Sequence record: OR352938.1
Reading direction: 5' to 3' (one strand)
DNA from: Escherichia phage AV108
Length of the DNA stretch: 64,000 nucleotides
In this document: one piece after another, positions 44,818 through 56,116 of the stretch
How positions within the stretch are numbered: position 1 is the stretch's first letter
How the letters are laid out: each line of letters starts with the position of its first letter
Program-made: the position numbers and the translations under genes
The notes under the pieces: generated by a model
What the model saw: only the letters and a program-made list of their open reading frames with translations
Told to the model about the DNA's origin: nothing
The model's database searches: none

Positions 44818-45987
44818 TTACCAATCAATCTTATCAGCCGGAATAAGTTTCTTATAATTCCGTAGATAGTAAGTTTTCATTGAATCCAGAATACGGTCAT
44901 AATCAAGACCATCAAATGCAATCATCAGACACATGAAAATATATGCTTGTGCATCACCATGTTTACGTGATTCGATAGTCGCATTGGATGCATATGTCTT
45001 TCTGTCTTCTCCCGCGTGTGCGTTATAAAATTCTGTTGCTGTCGTGAAGGCATTGCGAAGAATAGACCTGAATGCTTCCTCGAATAGCTCGATTCGTTCC
45101 AGTGCTTCCGGTTCGCCTTCATATGCAGCACGCAAATCATCGGTTTCGCTTTCTACGACATAGTAGATCAGGTTATTAGGAAACATCGATGTGTTTTTAA
45201 TGTTATGCACACCAATATACCATTCACTCTTCACTTTGAACATTTGACCGTCTTTAGTGCGTGCAACAATTCCTTCGATACCTTCTGCGGTCCGAACTTC
45301 ATCAAGAATATTGCTAAAACGCGCTGAATCAACCTGTAACGCATTTACCAGATGAGAACGTAGGATTGCGTCAGCAAATAGCATTTGATGCGGTACGTAC
45401 TCTCCTGTGACGTTATGGCGTACATTCAGAAGTGTTAGCGACGGTTCAGAATATTCTACAACAATTCGGTTGCTGGGCGCTGTATATTCAAAGTTGAAAG
45501 TATAATCAGACCCAATATCAGCAATCTTAGCGCGTAGATCCGCATACTTCTCTGAATACAGAAGACCGTTTGCTCTCTCTGCCTGGCTTGAGTACAAGGC
45601 CGCTTTAGACTTCAACTGAACATAGCCGTTATCAATGTAGGTGCTTACTAGACTACCGTCCATTTTGTCCATGACCATTTCCACATCTTCCGGCTTAAAG
45701 CGAGCGCGATCATTCTCGCCTAAATTAAAAAACTTCTCCATAGGACGAGATGCAATGCGGACCGGACGACCTTTATCGTCAATTTCAAACATGATCCCGC
45801 GACACTCTAACGCATCTGGTTTATTCCACATTTCCGGTTTGCTCAAGTACAGATAACTAAAAATGCGCATACGGGTTTGCATCGCCGTAATTTCATCTTT
45901 GTAATAGAACGTATCAGATCCGTCACATAGTGCCATCAGATTTTTGAACAATGCTAAAACTTTTTTGTTGTTTTCTTTTGTTGACAT
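44818..45987 (-). CDS. rnlA: RNA ligase 1
   Basis: KxDG adenylation motif (MDKMDGSLVSTY) and collinearity with T4 Rnl1 as recalled (ECRGIMFE, ASRPMEKFFNL). Confidence 0.88.
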   Translation of the reverse strand: MSTKENNKKVLALFKNLMALCDGSDTFYYKDEITAMQTRMRIFSYLYLSKPEMWNKPDALECRGIMFEIDDKGRPVRIASRPMEKFFNLGENDRARFKPEDVEMVMDKMDGSLVSTYIDNGYVQLKSKAALYSSQAERANGLLYSEKYADLRAKIADIGSDYTFNFEYTAPSNRIVVEYSEPSLTLLNVRHNVTGEYVPHQMLFADAILRSHLVNALQVDSARFSNILDEVRTAEGIEGIVARTKDGQMFKVKSEWYIGVHNIKNTSMFPNNLIYYVVESETDDLRAAYEGEPEALERIELFEEAFRSILRNAFTTATEFYNAHAGEDRKTYASNATIESRKHGDAQAYIFMCLMIAFDGLDYDRILDSMKTYYLRNYKKLIPADKIDW

Positions 45988-46384
45988 AATTTGTGTTCCA
46001 TTCTGGTTTAAATTTGGTGATCAAAACAGGTTCTTCGATATCGGCAGTGCTTATAATATCCTTACCCGTTGGATTCTCGATGTACAACTCAAAGCACTGT
46101 CGGTAATAGAATGTTACTGTCTTACCTTCCTCTAGCGCCTTATGAATATTCTTACTCTTGCGAGTATCCGCTGTTGGTGTTTGTCTGTTAATGCTAGTCC
46201 GGTAATAATTGATCCGCTTTCTGAGATTGACAGTCTGACCAATGTATACCAGTTCATCATCAACAACAATAGCGTAAAGAACATTTAAACGGTTCTTCTG
46301 AGGCGGCAGAATCACATCACCATCTTTACACTCTAAACATGAATATTTAACGAATCCATAGTTTTCTATTAGCTCATTAATCAT
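45923..46384 (-). CDS. denA: endonuclease II (GIY-YIG family)
   Basis: NVLYAIVVDDELVYIGQTVNLRKRINYYRT closely parallels T4 DenA as recalled; 3' end overlaps rnlA start by about 65 nt. Confidence 0.85.
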   Translation of the reverse strand: MINELIENYGFVKYSCLECKDGDVILPPQKNRLNVLYAIVVDDELVYIGQTVNLRKRINYYRTSINRQTPTADTRKSKNIHKALEEGKTVTFYYRQCFELYIENPTGKDIISTADIEEPVLITKFKPEWNTNYVNKRKQQKSFSIVQKSDGTM

Positions 46385-47438: not shown

Positions 47439-47915
47439 TTAATCATGACCGTGATTTGCAATGTCCGCTCGCGTCTTATCTTTGTGATTTCCTACGTCAA
47501 AGACACGATAACCATTTTCACGCAAAACTTTAATCACTTCTGGGTTATCCTCAAAGACTCCGACAACTTCATCTTTATCAAAGGATTTAATTACCTCTAA
47601 TTTGATGTGATAGTCTTTACGGGAATCGGTACGGCCTCTCATAAAGATTTTATCAAAACACACCCCGTTAGAAATTAACCAATCAATTGTTTCCATGTAA
47701 GCATGTGAACTTCGTCCGGTGAGGATGTAAATCAAATGCCCGTTGTCGGAAAGAGCATTAATAACACGAATTACATCGTAAATGGGGGAATCTCCCCCAC
47801 ATGCCTTGTTATATTCGATCCATGACTCGACTTTATCAAGATTTTCGGTTGGCATCTTTGCTAGTCGATGTGTTGGATCTGTGATCGTAAAATCTAAATC
47901 GACAAAATATATCAT
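47439..47915 (-). CDS. HAD-superfamily hydrolase (putative nucleotidase/phosphatase)
   Basis: N-terminal VDLDFTIT (DxDxT) motif; 158 aa. Confidence 0.5.
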   Translation of the reverse strand: MIYFVDLDFTITDPTHRLAKMPTENLDKVESWIEYNKACGGDSPIYDVIRVINALSDNGHLIYILTGRSSHAYMETIDWLISNGVCFDKIFMRGRTDSRKDYHIKLEVIKSFDKDEVVGVFEDNPEVIKVLRENGYRVFDVGNHKDKTRADIANHGHD

Positions 47916-49078
47916 AGATATTTCCCGAATCGGTTGTAGTCGTCATCTGTTAAATCGGTATTAACCTGAGATACCAGATACATAATCTCTACTTCCTGCG
48001 CTGCATTCTGTACTTCGTCAGAGTTCAACCATTTACGCATCCACGGTAACGGATGACGACGAACACTAAACGGGCTTTTCAGTCCGGCAGCACGCATACG
48101 GGAATCTGCCAGGTATTCTACATAGGTTTTCAGAATTTCCGGTGACAGGTTAGGAATTGCCCCCATTGCGAATAGGTGGTCTACCCATTCTTTTTCTTGC
48201 TCGACAACATCCAGAAAGATTTTCGTTGCTTCGCCTTCAAGTTCTTCCGCAATCTGTTTCCACTCATCACCATCAACCCCCGTTTGCCATTGACGAATAA
48301 TGTATTGTGTGCCTTTTAAGTGAAGTTGTTCATCACGCGCAATAAATTTCATGATCTTCGCGTTACCTTCCAGTAAACCACGTTCGGCAAAGCTGAAAGT
48401 ACATGCAAAGGACACATAAAAACGAATTGCTTCCAGTGCATTGACGCAGTGTGCACACAGATAAATCGAAGCCATCAGATCTCGTTTTGTATCTTCAAAA
48501 AATCTTCTTGCATCATCTAATGCTGTCTGGTCGTCTCGTTCTTCCCAATAGCGGAGATCTTCTTTTGCATTCTCATACTTACGAATCCAATAAAGAACAT
48601 CATCATAATATTTCCCGATAGATTCCGCTCGCTTCATGATAGCAGGGTTATCGATGATCTGGTCGAACTCACTAGCCGGATCAATGAAACAGTTACGCAT
48701 AATGTGTGTATAGCTTCGGCTATGAATCGTTTCGCTGAATGTCCATGTTTGCAACCATGTATCGAGAGTTGGATCAGATACAATTGGACCAAATGCTGCG
48801 GACGGTGCGCGACCTTGAATAGAATCAAGTAATGTCTGATACTTCAAGTTTTCAGTAAAGAAACGCTTTTCAACGTCACCCATATTAAGATATTGAATAC
48901 GGTCGGTTGCAAGTGAAATTTCTTCGGGGCGCCAAAAAAATGACAGAGATTTTTCAATTAGTTCTTCAAATACTTGATGACGCTGAATGTCATAACGAGC
49001 GATACCTAAACCGCTACCCAGAAACATCGGTTCATTCATAATATCAACGTGTTCACGATTAAATACCGTATTTCCCAT
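47912..49078 (-). CDS. nrdB: ribonucleotide reductase small subunit
   Basis: 388 aa (T4 NrdB about 388); adjacent to nrdA; continuous ORF with no intron. Confidence 0.85.
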   Translation of the reverse strand: MGNTVFNREHVDIMNEPMFLGSGLGIARYDIQRHQVFEELIEKSLSFFWRPEEISLATDRIQYLNMGDVEKRFFTENLKYQTLLDSIQGRAPSAAFGPIVSDPTLDTWLQTWTFSETIHSRSYTHIMRNCFIDPASEFDQIIDNPAIMKRAESIGKYYDDVLYWIRKYENAKEDLRYWEERDDQTALDDARRFFEDTKRDLMASIYLCAHCVNALEAIRFYVSFACTFSFAERGLLEGNAKIMKFIARDEQLHLKGTQYIIRQWQTGVDGDEWKQIAEELEGEATKIFLDVVEQEKEWVDHLFAMGAIPNLSPEILKTYVEYLADSRMRAAGLKSPFSVRRHPLPWMRKWLNSDEVQNAAQEVEIMYLVSQVNTDLTDDDYNRFGKYL

Positions 49079-49753
49079 TCACATATTCCTCATTTTACAG
49101 TTATCAAAGTGCCATCGTAGAGCATTGCCTTTATTGGTAATTTTACCGCAATGCGGACAAGGATCTGCCACTGTTGCTTCCTTTGTCCTTTGTGCAATCA
49201 GCTTTATCATTTCCTCGCTATGTGGTATTCCTTTAGTTGGCGATGGTTTCCCAAACATAGGATTTTTACTTCCCATTCTAGCTTTTGAAATGTTTAACGC
49301 GTGCTCCTTTGTTTTTGGCTTACGCATTTTAGCTTTTGTCTCTTCTGATTTCAACACACCTTTCGAAGATTCGCTAATCTTTCTTCGCGTTTCTTCTTTC
49401 ATCGGCTTGCCCTTTCTTTGTTCAGAGATAAGTACCCTAGCTTGTTCATATACCCTAGACGAAACAATATAATCTCTTTTATTGGTCTTCGCATTTTTTG
49501 CTAAACACATCATACCAAATGCTTGTGCCATAGGTCCACCATGAATTTTTGCTAGCAGATGATGAATCACGAAATGTTCTTTTGCTGTCAAATCAATCAG
49601 GTTATCAACTTCATCACCGCCACCCATAGATCTCGGTAAAATATGATGTGTTTCCTTATATCCTTCAACGGTTCCTCTTATCTTTGCTTTTTCTATGATT
49701 GCGTCATGTAATTTTTGTAAGTTCATGAATAAATCCTCGTTTCTGTATACCAT
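49079..49753 (-). CDS. HNH homing endonuclease with NUMOD-like repeats (MobE-like position)
   Basis: HHILPRSMGGGDEVDNLIDLTAKEHFVIHH (HNH) plus repeated basic KG.P...ET..KIS motifs; sits between nrdA and nrdB; start may be Met10 (49726). Confidence 0.7.
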   Translation of the reverse strand: MVYRNEDLFMNLQKLHDAIIEKAKIRGTVEGYKETHHILPRSMGGGDEVDNLIDLTAKEHFVIHHLLAKIHGGPMAQAFGMMCLAKNAKTNKRDYIVSSRVYEQARVLISEQRKGKPMKEETRRKISESSKGVLKSEETKAKMRKPKTKEHALNISKARMGSKNPMFGKPSPTKGIPHSEEMIKLIAQRTKEATVADPCPHCGKITNKGNALRWHFDNCKMRNM

Positions 49754-49823
49754 TATTTATCAGGTATCCAGAAGAAGGATTAATTCACCTCACCATTATC
49801 CTACAACCTCAAAACATTTATCA

Positions 49824-49964
49824 TCAGGAAGAATCGCCCATTCTACAACCGTATTCATCCTCGACGTAGTAGCAAGTCCCATCATGTCGAGCATCATATT
49901 CATCACCAACAACAAAGCTATCAGCTAGCTCAAAATCTACAGCAACACATTTTAATTTGGTCAT
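49824..49964 (-). CDS. hypothetical small protein (46 aa)
   Basis: ATG 49964 with GAGG RBS, downstream of promoter 49996-50024. Confidence 0.35.
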   Translation of the reverse strand: MTKLKCVAVDFELADSFVVGDEYDARHDGTCYYVEDEYGCRMGDSS

Positions 49965-49995: not shown

Positions 49996-50024
49996 ATTAT
50001 AGCGGGGATTTCTCCCCGCGTCAA
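49996..50024 (-). promoter_or_regulatory. sigma70-like early promoter with palindromic spacer (PeSL-type)
   Basis: TTGACG - CGGGGAGAAATCCCCGC - TATAAT on minus strand; spacer is the same hairpin module as after genes 18 and 19. Confidence 0.6.
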
Positions 50025-50032
50025 CACTTATT

Positions 50033-52276
50033 TTACAGCTTGCAAGATGAGCACTCGCTAGCGTCTTCCGTACCATCAGCACCGTCGCGAACGTTCGCAT
50101 AATACAGGGTTTTCAGACCGTAATATTGAGCAAACAACATATCATCTAACACATCAGCAATATCGACTTTACCAGTCTTATAAGTGCTTGGATCGTATGA
50201 TGTATTGGAACTAATCGCCTGATCCACAAACTTCTGCATGATCGCTGCCAGTGTCAGATAAGGCTTGTTACCTTTCTTGATCAGTGTCCAAAGCAGGTCA
50301 ATAACATCAGCATTATTCTCTACGTTCGGAATAACCTGATTAAATTGCCCTTCTTTCGATCCTTTAACCGATACAATACCGCGAGGCGGTTCAATACCGT
50401 TTGTGCTGTTAGATACCTGAGAAGACGACTCACAAGGCATCAGAGCCGAAAGCGTACTGTTACGAATGCCATATTTTTTCAGGTCTTCGCGCAGTTCTTC
50501 CCAATCCATCTCATATACCGGATCAACCAGTTCATCTACTGTCTTTTTGTACCAGTCGATAGGCAGTTCACCGCGTCCATAACGTGTTTCGTGCATCAGT
50601 TCGCAAGCACCCTTCTCTTTAGCCAGTTGCACACTAGCCTTAATCAGAGCATATTGCAAGCGTTCAAACGTTTTATGCGTAAACTCGTTAGCGTCTTCAT
50701 ATGTGAAGAAATTATCCGCGAGATACGATGCAAAGTTAGTCACCCCAACACCCAGAGAGCGACGTTTTTTGGATGTCAGAGCTTGCTCTACAGGATAATC
50801 CTGGTAATCTAACAGGTTGTCAAGTGCACGCACCATAACCATAGCAATGCGTTCTACTTCTTCCATATTTTCGATATCAAAGTTTCCTAAAACATATGCT
50901 GCCAAAGTACATAGGCTGATCTCTGAATCATCACGACCCATCGGTTTTGTAGGCAGAGCAATTTCACAACACAGGTTGGATTGTTTAATCGGTGCTACAT
51001 TACGAATAAACGCCCCGTGATTGTTCATGTTGTCTGTGAACGTTGGGTAGATTCGACCAGTGTTAAAACGTTCAATTGCCACCGCTAAAAACAGGTCTTC
51101 GGCTTTAACACGAGTTTTACGAACACTCGGATCTTTTTCCAGTTTTTCGTAAAGCTGGCGGAAACCTTCCTCATCTCGGAAGTATAGATCCCACAACAAG
51201 CCACCTGCAACATCTGGACTAAACAGAGTAATGTAATCCCGTTTAAGGAATCGCTCTACCATCAGGTTATTAATCTGTACGCCGTAATCAAGATGACGAA
51301 TGCGGTTATCTTCCACCCCCTTATTGTTCTTTAACACAATCAGACTTTCAAACTCTAAATGCCACATTGGGTAATAGAGAGTCGCCGCCCCGCCACGAAT
51401 ACCGCCTTGTGAGCATGACTTAACGGCAGTCTGAAAATGTTTCCAGAATGGGATAACGCCAGTATGACGAACTTCACCATGCCCGATCTTAGATCCTTCC
51501 GCGCGAATCATGCCAGCGTTGATACCGATACCAGCACGCTTGCTAATATACTTGATGATTGCATTTGCTGTTTCGTTGATGCCCTGCAATGAGTCATCAC
51601 TTTCAATCACCACACACGAACTAAATTGGCGTGTTGGGGTACGCACACCTGCCATAATCGGAGTAGGCAGAGAGATTTGCTTATTCGCAACAGCATTATA
51701 AAAATCAATCACATGTTCAAGTCTATTTTCGGTCTCTTCTTGATGCAAGCACATACCGATCAGCATATACGCAAATTGCGGTGTTTCGATGATTTTCTTA
51801 GTGCTGCGATCCTGAACAAGATATTTCTCTTTTAACTGCATCGCACCAGCATAGGTCATTTTAAAATCAAGTTTATGGTCGATGAATTTCTCCAGATATT
51901 CCACTTCTTCACGGGAATACTTTTGCAGAATTTCGCGATCATATTTTCCGATTGCAATATTACGCTCAATATGGCTATAAAAATCAATAGGTTGGAATTG
52001 ACCGTATACTGATTTACGAAGCGCGAACATTGCAAGGTTACTTGCTACATATTGATAATCGGGTGTTTCTACCGTGATGTTATCTGCGGCGACCTTAATC
52101 AATACTTTCTGGATATCATTGGTAGACATACCTTCTGTCAGAAGTGGTTCAACCATATCAAACAATTCATATGGATCAACGTTATGACCTTCGGCTGCCG
52201 CTTCCAGAATTTTCATTACTTTTTCTTTTTCAAACGGAACAGTCAGACCGGAAGACTTAACAACATTTTTAATCAT
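50033..52276 (-). CDS. nrdA: ribonucleotide reductase large subunit
   Basis: 747 aa (T4 NrdA about 754); N-terminal ATP-cone-like region; neighbour of nrdB. Confidence 0.88.
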   Translation of the reverse strand: MIKNVVKSSGLTVPFEKEKVMKILEAAAEGHNVDPYELFDMVEPLLTEGMSTNDIQKVLIKVAADNITVETPDYQYVASNLAMFALRKSVYGQFQPIDFYSHIERNIAIGKYDREILQKYSREEVEYLEKFIDHKLDFKMTYAGAMQLKEKYLVQDRSTKKIIETPQFAYMLIGMCLHQEETENRLEHVIDFYNAVANKQISLPTPIMAGVRTPTRQFSSCVVIESDDSLQGINETANAIIKYISKRAGIGINAGMIRAEGSKIGHGEVRHTGVIPFWKHFQTAVKSCSQGGIRGGAATLYYPMWHLEFESLIVLKNNKGVEDNRIRHLDYGVQINNLMVERFLKRDYITLFSPDVAGGLLWDLYFRDEEGFRQLYEKLEKDPSVRKTRVKAEDLFLAVAIERFNTGRIYPTFTDNMNNHGAFIRNVAPIKQSNLCCEIALPTKPMGRDDSEISLCTLAAYVLGNFDIENMEEVERIAMVMVRALDNLLDYQDYPVEQALTSKKRRSLGVGVTNFASYLADNFFTYEDANEFTHKTFERLQYALIKASVQLAKEKGACELMHETRYGRGELPIDWYKKTVDELVDPVYEMDWEELREDLKKYGIRNSTLSALMPCESSSQVSNSTNGIEPPRGIVSVKGSKEGQFNQVIPNVENNADVIDLLWTLIKKGNKPYLTLAAIMQKFVDQAISSNTSYDPSTYKTGKVDIADVLDDMLFAQYYGLKTLYYANVRDGADGTEDASECSSCKL

Positions 52277-52344: not shown

Positions 52345-53577
52345 TTATACTGCCATTTGAGCGGTGATCGCTGGATGGCTTTGATAGTTGTGAATTTTAA
52401 AGTCTTTCGGAGTCTTTGTCAATACCTCATCTAAAGATTTAAATTCCGGCAACTCAATTGTTGGTTTATCAAACGGAACACGGCTTAACTGTTCCATAAC
52501 TTGATCAAAGTGGTTTTTGTAAATGTGAGTATCTCCACCAGAGAAAATCAGTTCTCCTACCTCAAGATCACACATTTTCGCTATGATGTGAGTTAACAGC
52601 GCATAGCTGGCAACATTAAAGGGCAAGCCCAAAAAGCTGTCTACGCTTCGCTGAAACCACATACAAGACAGTTTACCTTCATTGACGTAGAATTGCACGA
52701 AAGGATGACATACACCCAATACAGCATTATGTGTTCCTTGTACGTTCCATGAGTCAATAATGATCCGGCGATCCGTTGGATTGTTTTTAATTTGTTCAAT
52801 CACGTTTTGTAACTGGTCTTCCCAAATCTTCGGGCGATAGACATATTCTTCATCGTCTTTAGTGCTCGATGTGTCTACGTCCATACTAGCAAAGATCGTG
52901 GTATCTGGTGCTAAAATATCCCCACCCAGATAATCACTATCAAGTAGATAACCGAAATAACCATCATCTACCCATTCCTGGAATCCCCACAAGCAATATG
53001 CATCATTAACAAAATTAGATTGAGTCTTCCAGTGATCTGCTACTAAGAATTGATTATATTCAGAATCAAACTCTTCATAACGCATACCACGCCAGATAGC
53101 ACATAAACGGTCTTCTGTGTCGTTGGTTGGCGTAAAGTCTTCTACCCACGGGTGCTTAAATGTATGTGCATATTTGCTCTTAACGCGCTTAATTTTGATT
53201 TCACCGTGTGGATGAATCGGTTTGCGTCGCCATGCCATACCATACATATTGCCGACATTATAACCATTGAATCGCAAAGGATTCTTTTCTTTCATATCAA
53301 GACAGTTGCCGCGCCAAATGTCGAAGGCTTCTTCGTCAAACTTACCGCGTGTAATTTCCTGTAAGCGACGGCGGTCAAGTGATCCCTCCATAAACCATAG
53401 CAATTCGCCAATTACAGAGGCTGTAGCCATCTTTTTAGTGGTCAGTAATGGGAAACCCTTGCTTAAATCAATTCGCATCTCTGCGCCGAATTTAGAGAGC
53501 GTACCTACCCCCGTGCGGTCTTCACGAGGCCAGCCATTATCAAGAACATCACGCAACAGTTTCAAATATTCTTTCAT
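52345..53577 (-). CDS. td: thymidylate synthase (ThyA-type) with expanded insertion domain
   Basis: DRTGVGT, LLWF, catalytic VCH, KLSC..FQRS.D.FLGLPFN, GGDTHIY as in ThyA/T4 Td as recalled; 410 aa versus 264-286 aa. Confidence 0.8.
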   Translation of the reverse strand: MKEYLKLLRDVLDNGWPREDRTGVGTLSKFGAEMRIDLSKGFPLLTTKKMATASVIGELLWFMEGSLDRRRLQEITRGKFDEEAFDIWRGNCLDMKEKNPLRFNGYNVGNMYGMAWRRKPIHPHGEIKIKRVKSKYAHTFKHPWVEDFTPTNDTEDRLCAIWRGMRYEEFDSEYNQFLVADHWKTQSNFVNDAYCLWGFQEWVDDGYFGYLLDSDYLGGDILAPDTTIFASMDVDTSSTKDDEEYVYRPKIWEDQLQNVIEQIKNNPTDRRIIIDSWNVQGTHNAVLGVCHPFVQFYVNEGKLSCMWFQRSVDSFLGLPFNVASYALLTHIIAKMCDLEVGELIFSGGDTHIYKNHFDQVMEQLSRVPFDKPTIELPEFKSLDEVLTKTPKDFKIHNYQSHPAITAQMAV

Positions 53578-54863: not shown

Positions 54864-54891
54864 ATTATACACTATTGCGTTACGCTGTCAA
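54864..54891 (-). promoter_or_regulatory. sigma70-like early promoter (TTGACA-16-TATAAT)
   Basis: Minus-strand -35/-10 pair overlapping the 3' end of the upstream ORF. Confidence 0.5.
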
Positions 54892-56058
54892 CTCTTTTTC
54901 AAAAGATTTTACGATATACATGATGGTGCTCAATTCGGACGGCGCTACTGTCTCTGTGTAGCCATCCGGCATATCTTCTTTCGAGATATAGGAAGTTTTA
55001 CCTTTCATTACTTCCTTGATTTTGTTCTCTAATTCTAAGATCTTTTGACCGTCTTGTAAAGTCAATTCATAAAAGATCTCATGATCGAACTTTGAAACAC
55101 GAGATTGGTTTCTCATGCGCTCATGTGTTTCTTTGTTTGTTATTCCAAATTTCACGCCAACAAAGGAATCATTGTTGGTTAATTTCTGTATATAAAGAGT
55201 TCCTGTCTTTAATGCCTGATAACCATGCTTAGAACACAACGGGCAGCGTGTTCCGCGATTAACAAAATTATCAATAGTTACATCCCATTCATGGTTACGT
55301 TCGCATGTCAGAAGTATTCTTGTTAATGCACCTTTCCACTTTCCTGAAATCCCAATAAATTTTAGTCTGTTGGTTTCGCATATTTTTTCAATTTGTTTTA
55401 ATCGGTCACTTTTTGTTATTGGTGCTGTTCCGCTACATTTGCGACACCGACGACCTAGTTTGAACTTATCATAACTTTGTTCGTAAATGTGATTATTAGG
55501 ACACTCAAATTTAAGTTTAGTTTTTGTTCCTCTCCATTCCCCAATTATACCCAAAAATTTATAATCTCCTTTATTTTCATTTATATAAGATAAGGAATCT
55601 TCTTTATCATGCATCTTGCCCCCGTTACATAAAGGACATCTTGTTTTTTGATGAATGAAATCTGTATATGTTGGTTGGTATGTGTGTCCGTTTGTACAGT
55701 TCATAATGAGTCTTGTTCTGCTATTTTTATACTCCCCACCAACAAAACCAACAAATACATCGTTTGTTTCTTGTTTTATTCTTTCTATCACATTGTTTGG
55801 GTTTAATCTTTGAGAATCAACCACACATTTCTTACACGAAACGTTTTTCCTGATATTTGCTAGAGTTGATGTGTATTCATGCTTGTTATTACATAATATA
55901 AGAGCTTTTGTTTTGAGACCAGACCATTCTCCAACAAACCCCATGAAAGAATAACCAACTTCCAAACATGAATTTTTTACAACATTTTCCCAATAGAAGG
56001 GAGTTTTCGTGTTTCCTTTTATTTCTATACTAATCTCATGTGCTTGACGTACTAACAT
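54880..56058 (-). CDS. protein with four tandem Cys4 zinc-ribbon repeats and C-terminal GIY-YIG-like (T5orf172-type) domain; putative homing-endonuclease-like
   Basis: Four ~65-aa repeats each F.G..GEW.G..T...C...H.Y......F.....C..C; C-terminus LYIQKL...FVGVKFGIT; ATG 56058 with GGAGG RBS. Confidence 0.5.
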   Translation of the reverse strand: MLVRQAHEISIEIKGNTKTPFYWENVVKNSCLEVGYSFMGFVGEWSGLKTKALILCNNKHEYTSTLANIRKNVSCKKCVVDSQRLNPNNVIERIKQETNDVFVGFVGGEYKNSRTRLIMNCTNGHTYQPTYTDFIHQKTRCPLCNGGKMHDKEDSLSYINENKGDYKFLGIIGEWRGTKTKLKFECPNNHIYEQSYDKFKLGRRCRKCSGTAPITKSDRLKQIEKICETNRLKFIGISGKWKGALTRILLTCERNHEWDVTIDNFVNRGTRCPLCSKHGYQALKTGTLYIQKLTNNDSFVGVKFGITNKETHERMRNQSRVSKFDHEIFYELTLQDGQKILELENKIKEVMKGKTSYISKEDMPDGYTETVAPSELSTIMYIVKSFEKELTA

Positions 56059-56088
56059 ATTTTTATCCTCCGTTGTTTCGATGATTGT

Positions 56089-56116
56089 ATTATACATTAC
56101 CACATCAGCATGTCAA
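56089..56116 (-). promoter_or_regulatory. sigma70-like early promoter (TTGACA-16-TATAAT)
   Basis: Minus-strand -35/-10 pair upstream of the zinc-ribbon repeat gene. Confidence 0.5.

Follow-up and report, generated by a model that had tools for sequence, protein, structure and literature searches.

The closest described counterpart of the gene analyzed here is mobE of phage T4, which lies between nrdA and the first exon of nrdB. T4 MobE is inherited at high frequency, and in phage T2 nrdB a nick that depends on MobE and is confined to one strand falls at nt 122 to 126, at codon 42 (Wilson and Edgell 2009, PMC2790892). This codon is AAG in all phages lacking mobE (PMC2790892). In the proposed mode of recognition, the nrdB codons for FFWRPEE are bound by the DNA-binding module, and the polymorphic nt 114 to 131 are read by the HNH domain (PMC2790892). 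Deletion of the HNH motif of T4 MobE abolished nicking, and the protein has never been shown to be active in vitro (PMC2790892). Among other phage endonucleases, I-HmuI is a nicking enzyme, and a design combining a late promoter with an RNA hairpin is known for I-TevI, I-TevII, I-TevIII, segB, and mobE of phage Aeh1 (PMC2988022). Two mob-like HNH genes have been counted in phage JSE and none in RB49 and phi1 (Petrov et al. 2010, PMC2993671).

We analyzed a 64,000-nucleotide stretch of DNA from Escherichia phage AV108 (sequence record OR352938.1; hereafter, the window), in which an initial annotation had noted an endonuclease gene between the two ribonucleotide reductase (RNR) genes. Judged from its sequence, domain architecture, position, and population pattern, this gene is a member of the MobE family.

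Gene order and start codon

On the minus strand of the window, the open reading frame (ORF) list between 47.9 and 53.6 kb gives, in order, td (positions 52345 to 53577; 410 amino acids [aa]; Pfam thymidylate synthase), nrdA (50033 to 52276; 747 aa; Pfam ATP-cone and RNR large-chain N and barrel domains), a small ORF, the endonuclease ORF, and nrdB (47912 to 49078; 388 aa; Pfam RNR small chain). The annotated placement of the endonuclease gene between nrdA and nrdB is thus borne out by the coordinates. Over 5 kb around the gene, identity is 99.1% with Escherichia phage FL15 and 98% with phage JSE, two members of the genus Krischvirus (RB49/JSE-like T4-type phages), to which the window also belongs.

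The span first given for the gene, 49079 to 49753 on the minus strand, corresponds to the longest reading of the frame (224 aa). Its lower boundary stands, and its start probably does not: the second ATG, at 49726, is preceded by a GAGGA Shine-Dalgarno (SD) sequence 7 nt upstream, the alignment with T4 MobE starts at the Met of this codon, and the corresponding 648-nt version of the gene is annotated in three of the five relatives examined (i.e., JSE, PTE-Eco09, and phiS). The true start is therefore probably 49726, giving a MobE-type, free-standing HNH endonuclease gene of 215 aa (49079 to 49726, minus strand). Its stop codon abuts the nrdB start directly (TGAATG), and the nrdB SD sequence (GAGGAA) lies within its last codons.

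The small ORF downstream of nrdA (49824 to 49964, minus strand) is a homolog of RB49p233 (phrog_16302) that the alignment shows to be frameshifted in the window. One extra T at about 49847 to 49848, relative to all 12 other Krischvirus sequences, alters its last 8 residues and reduces its length from 55 to 46 aa; this may be a real frameshift or a sequencing error.

Family and domains of the endonuclease

The protein matches T4 MobE over its full length (BLASTP, 48% identity, 215/232 residues aligned, E value of 9e-76; tblastn against T4, 1e-62) and PHROG 655, "homing endonuclease" (2.7e-56). The gene occupies the same nrdA-nrdB position as its T4 homolog, in agreement with the annotated parallel to the T4 mob-type niche. 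The nrdA-nrdB interval also contains homologs of 50 to 53% identity in Mosigvirus LF82-33, Acinetobacter phage Morttis, and two metagenomic T4-like contigs.

Three regions can be distinguished in the protein. The HNH catalytic core, residues 23 to 58 (YKETHHILPRSMGGGDEVDNLIDLTAKEHFVIHHLL; 49553 to 49660, minus strand), is delimited by invariant residues, a profile match to McrA, and an AlphaFold2 model (mean pLDDT of 90.4 for the whole protein), in which it forms strands 25 to 28 and 43 to 46 followed by helix 48 to 62, a beta-beta-alpha arrangement with a pLDDT of about 96. In the model, the core is followed by a string of helices and then by a small C-terminal knuckle. The helices 111 to 121, 128 to 135, 140 to 150, and 171 to 185 fall in the region of NUMOD3-type helical repeats, the presumed DNA-binding module (residues about 105 to 183; 49178 to 49414, minus strand), which Pfam NUMOD3 (PF07460) matches in up to four stretches (35.9 bits, E value of 6.8e-9; gathering threshold, 20.4 bits). 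The third region is a C-terminal CCHC zinc knuckle (CPHCGK...RWHFDNC; 49097 to 49159, minus strand), a motif also present in T4 MobE, and this region gave weak profile matches to zinc-finger and zinc-ribbon proteins.

The assignment of the core to the HNH nucleases required more than the Pfam models. Pfam HNH (PF01844) scored 15.7 bits (E value of 0.017), under its gathering threshold of 21.4 bits, and HNH_5 was also below threshold. Fold searches with the AlphaFold2 model, which is extended in shape, returned no significant match, with HNH domains among the best specific ones, and a single-sequence search of the PDB gave marginal HNH matches only, such that a profile search was needed. The Pfam and fold-search results would fit a NUMOD3/zinc-finger DNA-binding protein with a chance HNH-like motif rather than a nuclease. 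We consider this explanation barely credible, for in an alignment of 49 homologs, down to about 34% identity, the motif residues E25, H27, H28, P31, H51, H55, and L58 are invariant and N42 is nearly so (at least 90% conserved), as are, without exception, the C-terminal residues C190, C193, H206, and C210. Moreover, the family profile matches three unrelated solved HNH domains (Escherichia coli McrA, 3.4e-4; Cas8-HNH, 2.4e-3; and a group II intron maturase, 5e-3), each aligned on the catalytic residues, and loss of nicking upon deletion of the motif in T4 MobE (PMC2790892) also speaks against a chance resemblance. Several homologs pass Pfam HNH in precomputed annotation; on this evidence, the family is at the edge of the Pfam HNH model, not outside the HNH fold. 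We therefore accept HNH membership on the grounds of motif, profile, and homology, not of the Pfam threshold. The description of the gene as a free-standing HNH/NUMOD endonuclease is upheld; in profile searches, the kind of evidence that the initial annotation had named as capable of refuting it, the family profile finds HNH domains and the Pfam HNH model stays below threshold.

Introns and the thymidylate synthase insert

The initial annotation also stated that nrdB and td are uninterrupted and that the genome carries the endonuclease but not the group I introns. We found nrdA, nrdB, and td to be continuous ORFs, unlike T4 nrdB, which is split in two pieces, and the endonuclease ORF is not embedded in an intron. 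At Rfam gathering thresholds, neither a group I intron nor any other family was found in the whole 64-kb window. This statement is limited to the window and does not extend to the genome, because a putative intron has been reported in gene 43 of the close relative JSE (PMC2993671), and gene 43 lies outside the window. A MobE homolog without an nrdB intron also occurs in Mosigvirus LF82-33 and is not unusual.

The td gene is free of introns but is not of simple structure. Td owes its 410 aa to an in-frame insertion domain of ~130 aa (at about 52830 to 53220), located where the "small domain" lies, between YGMAWR and DQLQ. No Pfam family matches this insert, which all Krischvirus Td proteins share with the ThyA proteins of the jumbo phages UE-S1 and KP13-7 (34% identity) and with the 477-aa ThyA of Vibrio phage D69, a protein misannotated as "HNH endonuclease." The idea that the insert is a fossil HNH endonuclease was set aside: the D69 match gives no evidence of a nuclease origin, as that protein is itself a thymidylate synthase into which the same domain is inserted.

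A 712-nt cassette at the nrdB start codon

Copies of the gene with at least 95% identity are found in only seven phage records, i.e., FL15, PTE-Eco09, JSE (two records), phiS, SSG23, and SFHK24; the next best match is at 52%. The encoded protein is 98 to 99% identical in JSE (YP_002922309), FL15, PTE-Eco09, phiS, and SSG23/SFHK24, with the same position and flanks, and the copies in JSE, FL15, PTE-Eco09, phiS, and SSG23 are annotated as "homing endonuclease." Two residues differ between the window copy and that of FL15. A scan of IMG/VR with the protein added no carrier loci, returning only distant or partial relatives with at most 33% identity over the full length. In most Krischvirus records the site is empty (dozens of empty sites): the flanks are matched at ~98% and ~700 nt are missing in RB49, Phi1, kvi, kaaroe, Sf20, MIZ4, Delraymugoa, and many others.

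The comparative alignment of the nrdA-nrdB junction suggested in the initial annotation was carried out with 6 carriers and 7 RB49-type noncarriers (13 phages) and revealed a clean cassette at the nrdB start codon. Relative to the RB49-type empty sites, the inserted cassette measures 712 nt (49067 to 49778, minus strand) and comprises a 5' leader, the endonuclease ORF, and a new nrdB start. The sequence common to both groups ends with ...GAGGTGAATTAAT and restarts with GTATTTAA...; the intervening sequence is 4 nt in RB49 (the G of ATG plus AGC) and 712 nt in the carriers. PTE-Eco09 is longer than RB49 by 708 nt over the same stretch. The cassette gives nrdB three extra or changed codons (MGNTVF in place of MSVF). 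Its precise loss would harm nrdB expression, because the cassette now supplies the SD sequence and start codon of nrdB.

In RB49-type phages, nrdA and nrdB are separated by three small ORFs. Since PTE-Eco09, phiS, and SSG23 keep all three and carry the endonuclease gene in addition, the element is, on this comparison, a pure insertion. JSE and FL15 resemble the window in lacking 340 bp at this place (junction, 49793/49794), with the loss of two small ORFs (RB49p232 and RB49p231). These two ORFs are paralogous, both starting with MAT(V/L)WLL, and are kept in the other carriers and in all noncarriers; the 340-bp stretch lies at about 2297 to 2637 in loci L045, L046, and L047.

Other differences were seen in the neighborhood. 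In Delraymugoa (L048, 2165 to 3004) and Aragogtheria, nrdA is closely followed by a DNA methyltransferase gene, SSG23 (L047, 5128 to 5430) has an extra 100-aa ORF between td and nrdA, and nrdB of phiS contains a 27-nt in-frame insertion. A 407-aa ORF of the window (54880 to 56103, minus strand) encodes four CapR-homology domains plus a treble-clef zinc finger; its PHROG match is phrog_681, "endonuclease" (2e-100). Beside gene 32, at the equivalent location, an "endonuclease" gene is present in RB49 and absent from JSE; the ORF may be another variable endonuclease-like gene. The GIY-YIG protein encoded at 45923 to 46384 (minus strand; phrog_1111, 2e-52) corresponds to denA (endonuclease II) of RB49 and JSE and is not a homing endonuclease.

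Predicted leader hairpin and putative promoters

Folding of the leader RNA predicted a hairpin of 77 nt (49717 to 49793, minus strand) that pairs both the SD sequence (49734 to 49738) and the AUG (49724 to 49726) of the endonuclease gene. Its minimum free energy is -27.8 kcal/mol (z score of -4.98), and none of 200 shuffled sequences folds as well. The same hairpin is predicted in all six distinct carriers (-27.8 to -33.1 kcal/mol), with sequence variation too low to show covariation. The 5' arm (49779 to 49793) derives from what serves as the nrdB translation-initiation region in empty-site phages (GTGAGGTGAATTAAT). The hairpin loop contains GATAAATA (49754 to 49761, minus strand), which pattern search matched to the T4 late-promoter consensus TATAAATA with one mismatch and which is a speculative late promoter. 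Transcripts initiated just downstream of GATAAATA are predicted to lack the 5' arm and to leave the SD sequence unpaired (-4.3 kcal/mol). From these features we infer a late promoter and a translational switch in the endonuclease leader.

A sigma-70-type promoter-like site, TTGACG-17-TATAAT (49996 to 50024, minus strand), matches the consensus at 11 of 12 positions just downstream of the nrdA stop codon. It has a GC hairpin in its spacer, is conserved in carriers and noncarriers in the alignment, and likely gives rise to transcripts that extend across the small ORF, the endonuclease gene, and nrdB. In such transcripts, the ribosome-binding site (RBS) and start codon of the endonuclease would be locked in the hairpin and expression probably restrained, and GATAAATA might yield late transcripts without the inhibitory arm. 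We looked for a T4-like internal terminator in the 5' part of the endonuclease gene and found none. Sigma-70-like hexamers within the gene (49326 to 49354) are not claimed as an nrdB promoter, as 6 such matches were found versus 4.9 expected by chance.

The tight coupling of the gene to nrdB at the TGAATG junction raises another explanation, namely, that the protein now serves another role and that homing has become secondary or been lost; it could be a DNA-binding regulator of nrd expression or a weapon that excludes rival Krischvirus genomes (marker exclusion). In T4, endonucleases encoded in introns also act as autorepressors, and marker exclusion can be caused by free-standing endonucleases (PMC2988022). 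We nevertheless regard co-option as quite improbable: the sequence gives no pointer beyond the standard role, and marker exclusion is no separate mechanism but the same biochemical activity viewed from the side of the host phage.

The nrdB 5' tract and the presumed target allele

In the alignment of the 13 phages, the 5' end of nrdB (48946 to 49078, minus strand) shows elevated divergence between carriers and noncarriers and is a candidate co-conversion or immunity tract. Divergence between the 6 carriers and 7 noncarriers reaches 18.4% in 49000 to 49099 and 11.5% in 48900 to 48999, compared with 0.1 to 5.9% elsewhere across nrdB and nrdA and at most 3.7% within either group in the same two intervals. 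Fixed differences in homologous sequence are all located within nrdB nt 4 to 133 (49075 to 48946) and end in a dense cluster at 48959 to 48946. "Fixed differences" reported from the MAFFT alignment within 49083 to 49727 were discarded, as nonhomologous sequence had been aligned there.

A codon alignment with T4, RB49, LF82-33, and contig L060 identified the counterpart of the MobE target in nrdB as the codons for E-K-S-L-S-F-F-W-R-P-E-E (48920 to 48955, minus strand). The position homologous to the T2 nick (nt 122 to 126) is 48950 to 48954, and the cluster of Krischvirus differences falls at the codons homologous to the T2 nick-site region. Here, carriers have GAA AAA TCT CTG TCA TTT TTT TGG, whereas RB49-type phages have GAA AAG CAA TTG TCA TTT TTC TGG. 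The form AAA TCT CT(G/C) is also found in the mobE-positive LF82-33 and L060, and we presume that AAA TCT CTG is an uncleavable nrdB allele.

A wider search with a 139-nt tract matched exactly the seven carrier records at 97.8% or more and about 21 further records at 90 to 95%. AAA TCT CTG occurs in every carrier and is not restricted to carriers: PHB13 (L061) and KFS-EC (L062) have the RB49-type empty site and start codon yet carry this allele, and PHB13 shows four further carrier-type single-nucleotide polymorphisms nearer the nrdB start, a mosaic pattern. Because the allele is present in these phages without the gene, part of the divergence tract may be older polymorphism rather than co-conversion. 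The pattern in PHB13 and KFS-EC is consistent with empty sites that are resistant or that descend from a loss, both of which a homing cycle should generate. Import of the carrier nrdB 5' tract from a T-even donor was considered and rejected, the tract being only 3 to 5 percentage points closer to T4/LF82-33 than that of RB49.

A proposed homing cycle at the nrdA-nrdB junction

We consider it probable (roughly 80%) that the locus carries a functional gene for a MobE-type free-standing homing endonuclease, the mechanism being modeled on that of T4 MobE. By this analogy we infer nicking, the exact target, immunity through AAA TCT CTG, and late-only translation. The NUMOD3 and zinc-knuckle module would bind the conserved nrdB sequence encoding FFWRPEE, and, a few codons upstream of it, the N-terminal HNH domain would nick the noncoding strand where RB49-type phages lacking the gene have the allele AAG CAA TTG. 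During mixed infection, repair templated by the carrier genome would copy the 712-nt cassette and, with it, the nrdB segment of roughly 130 nt that separates the insertion point from the nick. The carrier genome itself would be protected because its own nrdB has AAA TCT CTG at the nick position.

The same population data raise the question of whether the gene still homes. A stranded or decaying copy, persisting only by carrying the nrdB RBS and start codon, would account for the small number of carriers (only seven records) and for the location of the nrdB translation signals inside the cassette; the presumed resistant allele is common in noncarriers (the approximately 21 records in the 90 to 95% band), leaving fewer targets, and a defunct endonuclease, I-TevIII, is known from the same locus in T4 (PMC2790892). 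Yet the ORF is intact in all six distinct carriers, with no catalytic or zinc ligand altered. Among these six copies, 31 variable codons have synonymous changes only and 10 have nonsynonymous changes (about 3:1), a pattern that argues for purifying selection on the endonuclease protein itself and not just on the 3' end of its gene. A stranded copy is thus unlikely in our view, although less so than co-option, and a functional homing endonuclease is the reading that we retain.

At this one locus, Krischvirus may present the homing cycle in each of its three stages: empty and cleavable sites (AAG CAA TTG; RB49, Phi1, kvi, and others), empty and resistant sites (AAA TCT CTG; PHB13, KFS-EC, and others), and occupied sites (the seven carrier records). 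The element may, in addition, have built a translational switch for itself by pairing its RBS with what is left of the recipient's nrdB initiation region. The codons conferring resistance would be identical to those of mobE-positive T-even-type phages of other genera. We put this wider scheme forward tentatively, at somewhat less than even odds; if true, it provides a natural population in which to follow directly how a phage homing endonuclease is gained, resisted, and lost.

Comparison with known systems

The element is ordinary and already known both in kind and in instance, since the JSE copy is annotated as "homing endonuclease" and the mob-like HNH genes of JSE were counted in 2010 (PMC2993671). 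What the present analysis adds are the cassette borders, the nrdB tract ending at the position of the T2 nick, the shared AAA TCT CTN allele, and the leader hairpin; the empty-site phages with the same allele are also part of its comparative value. Together, these yield a specific and testable prediction of target site and immunity for a MobE relative. They also draw attention to JSE-like therapeutic phages as potentially able to convert RB49-like phages in cocktails.

The closest likeness is to T4 MobE. The two share the architecture of HNH, NUMOD3, and CCHC regions, the niche between nrdA and nrdB, a gene end that abuts nrdB directly, a polymorphic region just upstream of the nrdB FFWRPEE codons, and presence or absence among close relatives. 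They differ in their expression signals. T4 mobE overlaps the nrdA stop codon, is promoterless, and has an internal intrinsic terminator, with a middle promoter for nrdB. In contrast, a promoter-like site and between one and three small ORFs lie between nrdA and the gene described here, which has its own SD sequence in a predicted sequestering hairpin, without an internal terminator. In addition, MobE mobilizes the T4 nrdB intron in trans, whereas the window nrdB has no intron.

Endonucleases of the I-HmuI/I-TevIII type likewise join an HNH nuclease domain to an extended DNA-binding region. I-HmuI was not among the sequence or fold matches of the window protein, and these enzymes are encoded within group I introns, unlike the free-standing gene described here. 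The mobE gene of the Aeromonas phage Aeh1 (Gibb and Edgell 2007, 2009, via PMC2988022) also encodes an RNR-associated mob-type HNH endonuclease; it is inserted in nrdA, splitting that gene, whereas the window gene is intergenic. Aeh1 mobE is controlled by an RBS-sequestering RNA hairpin and a late promoter, and the predicted leader of the window gene suggests the same design. In this respect, the leader hairpin resembles control of the Aeh1 mobE/I-TevI type rather than that of the T4 mobE type.
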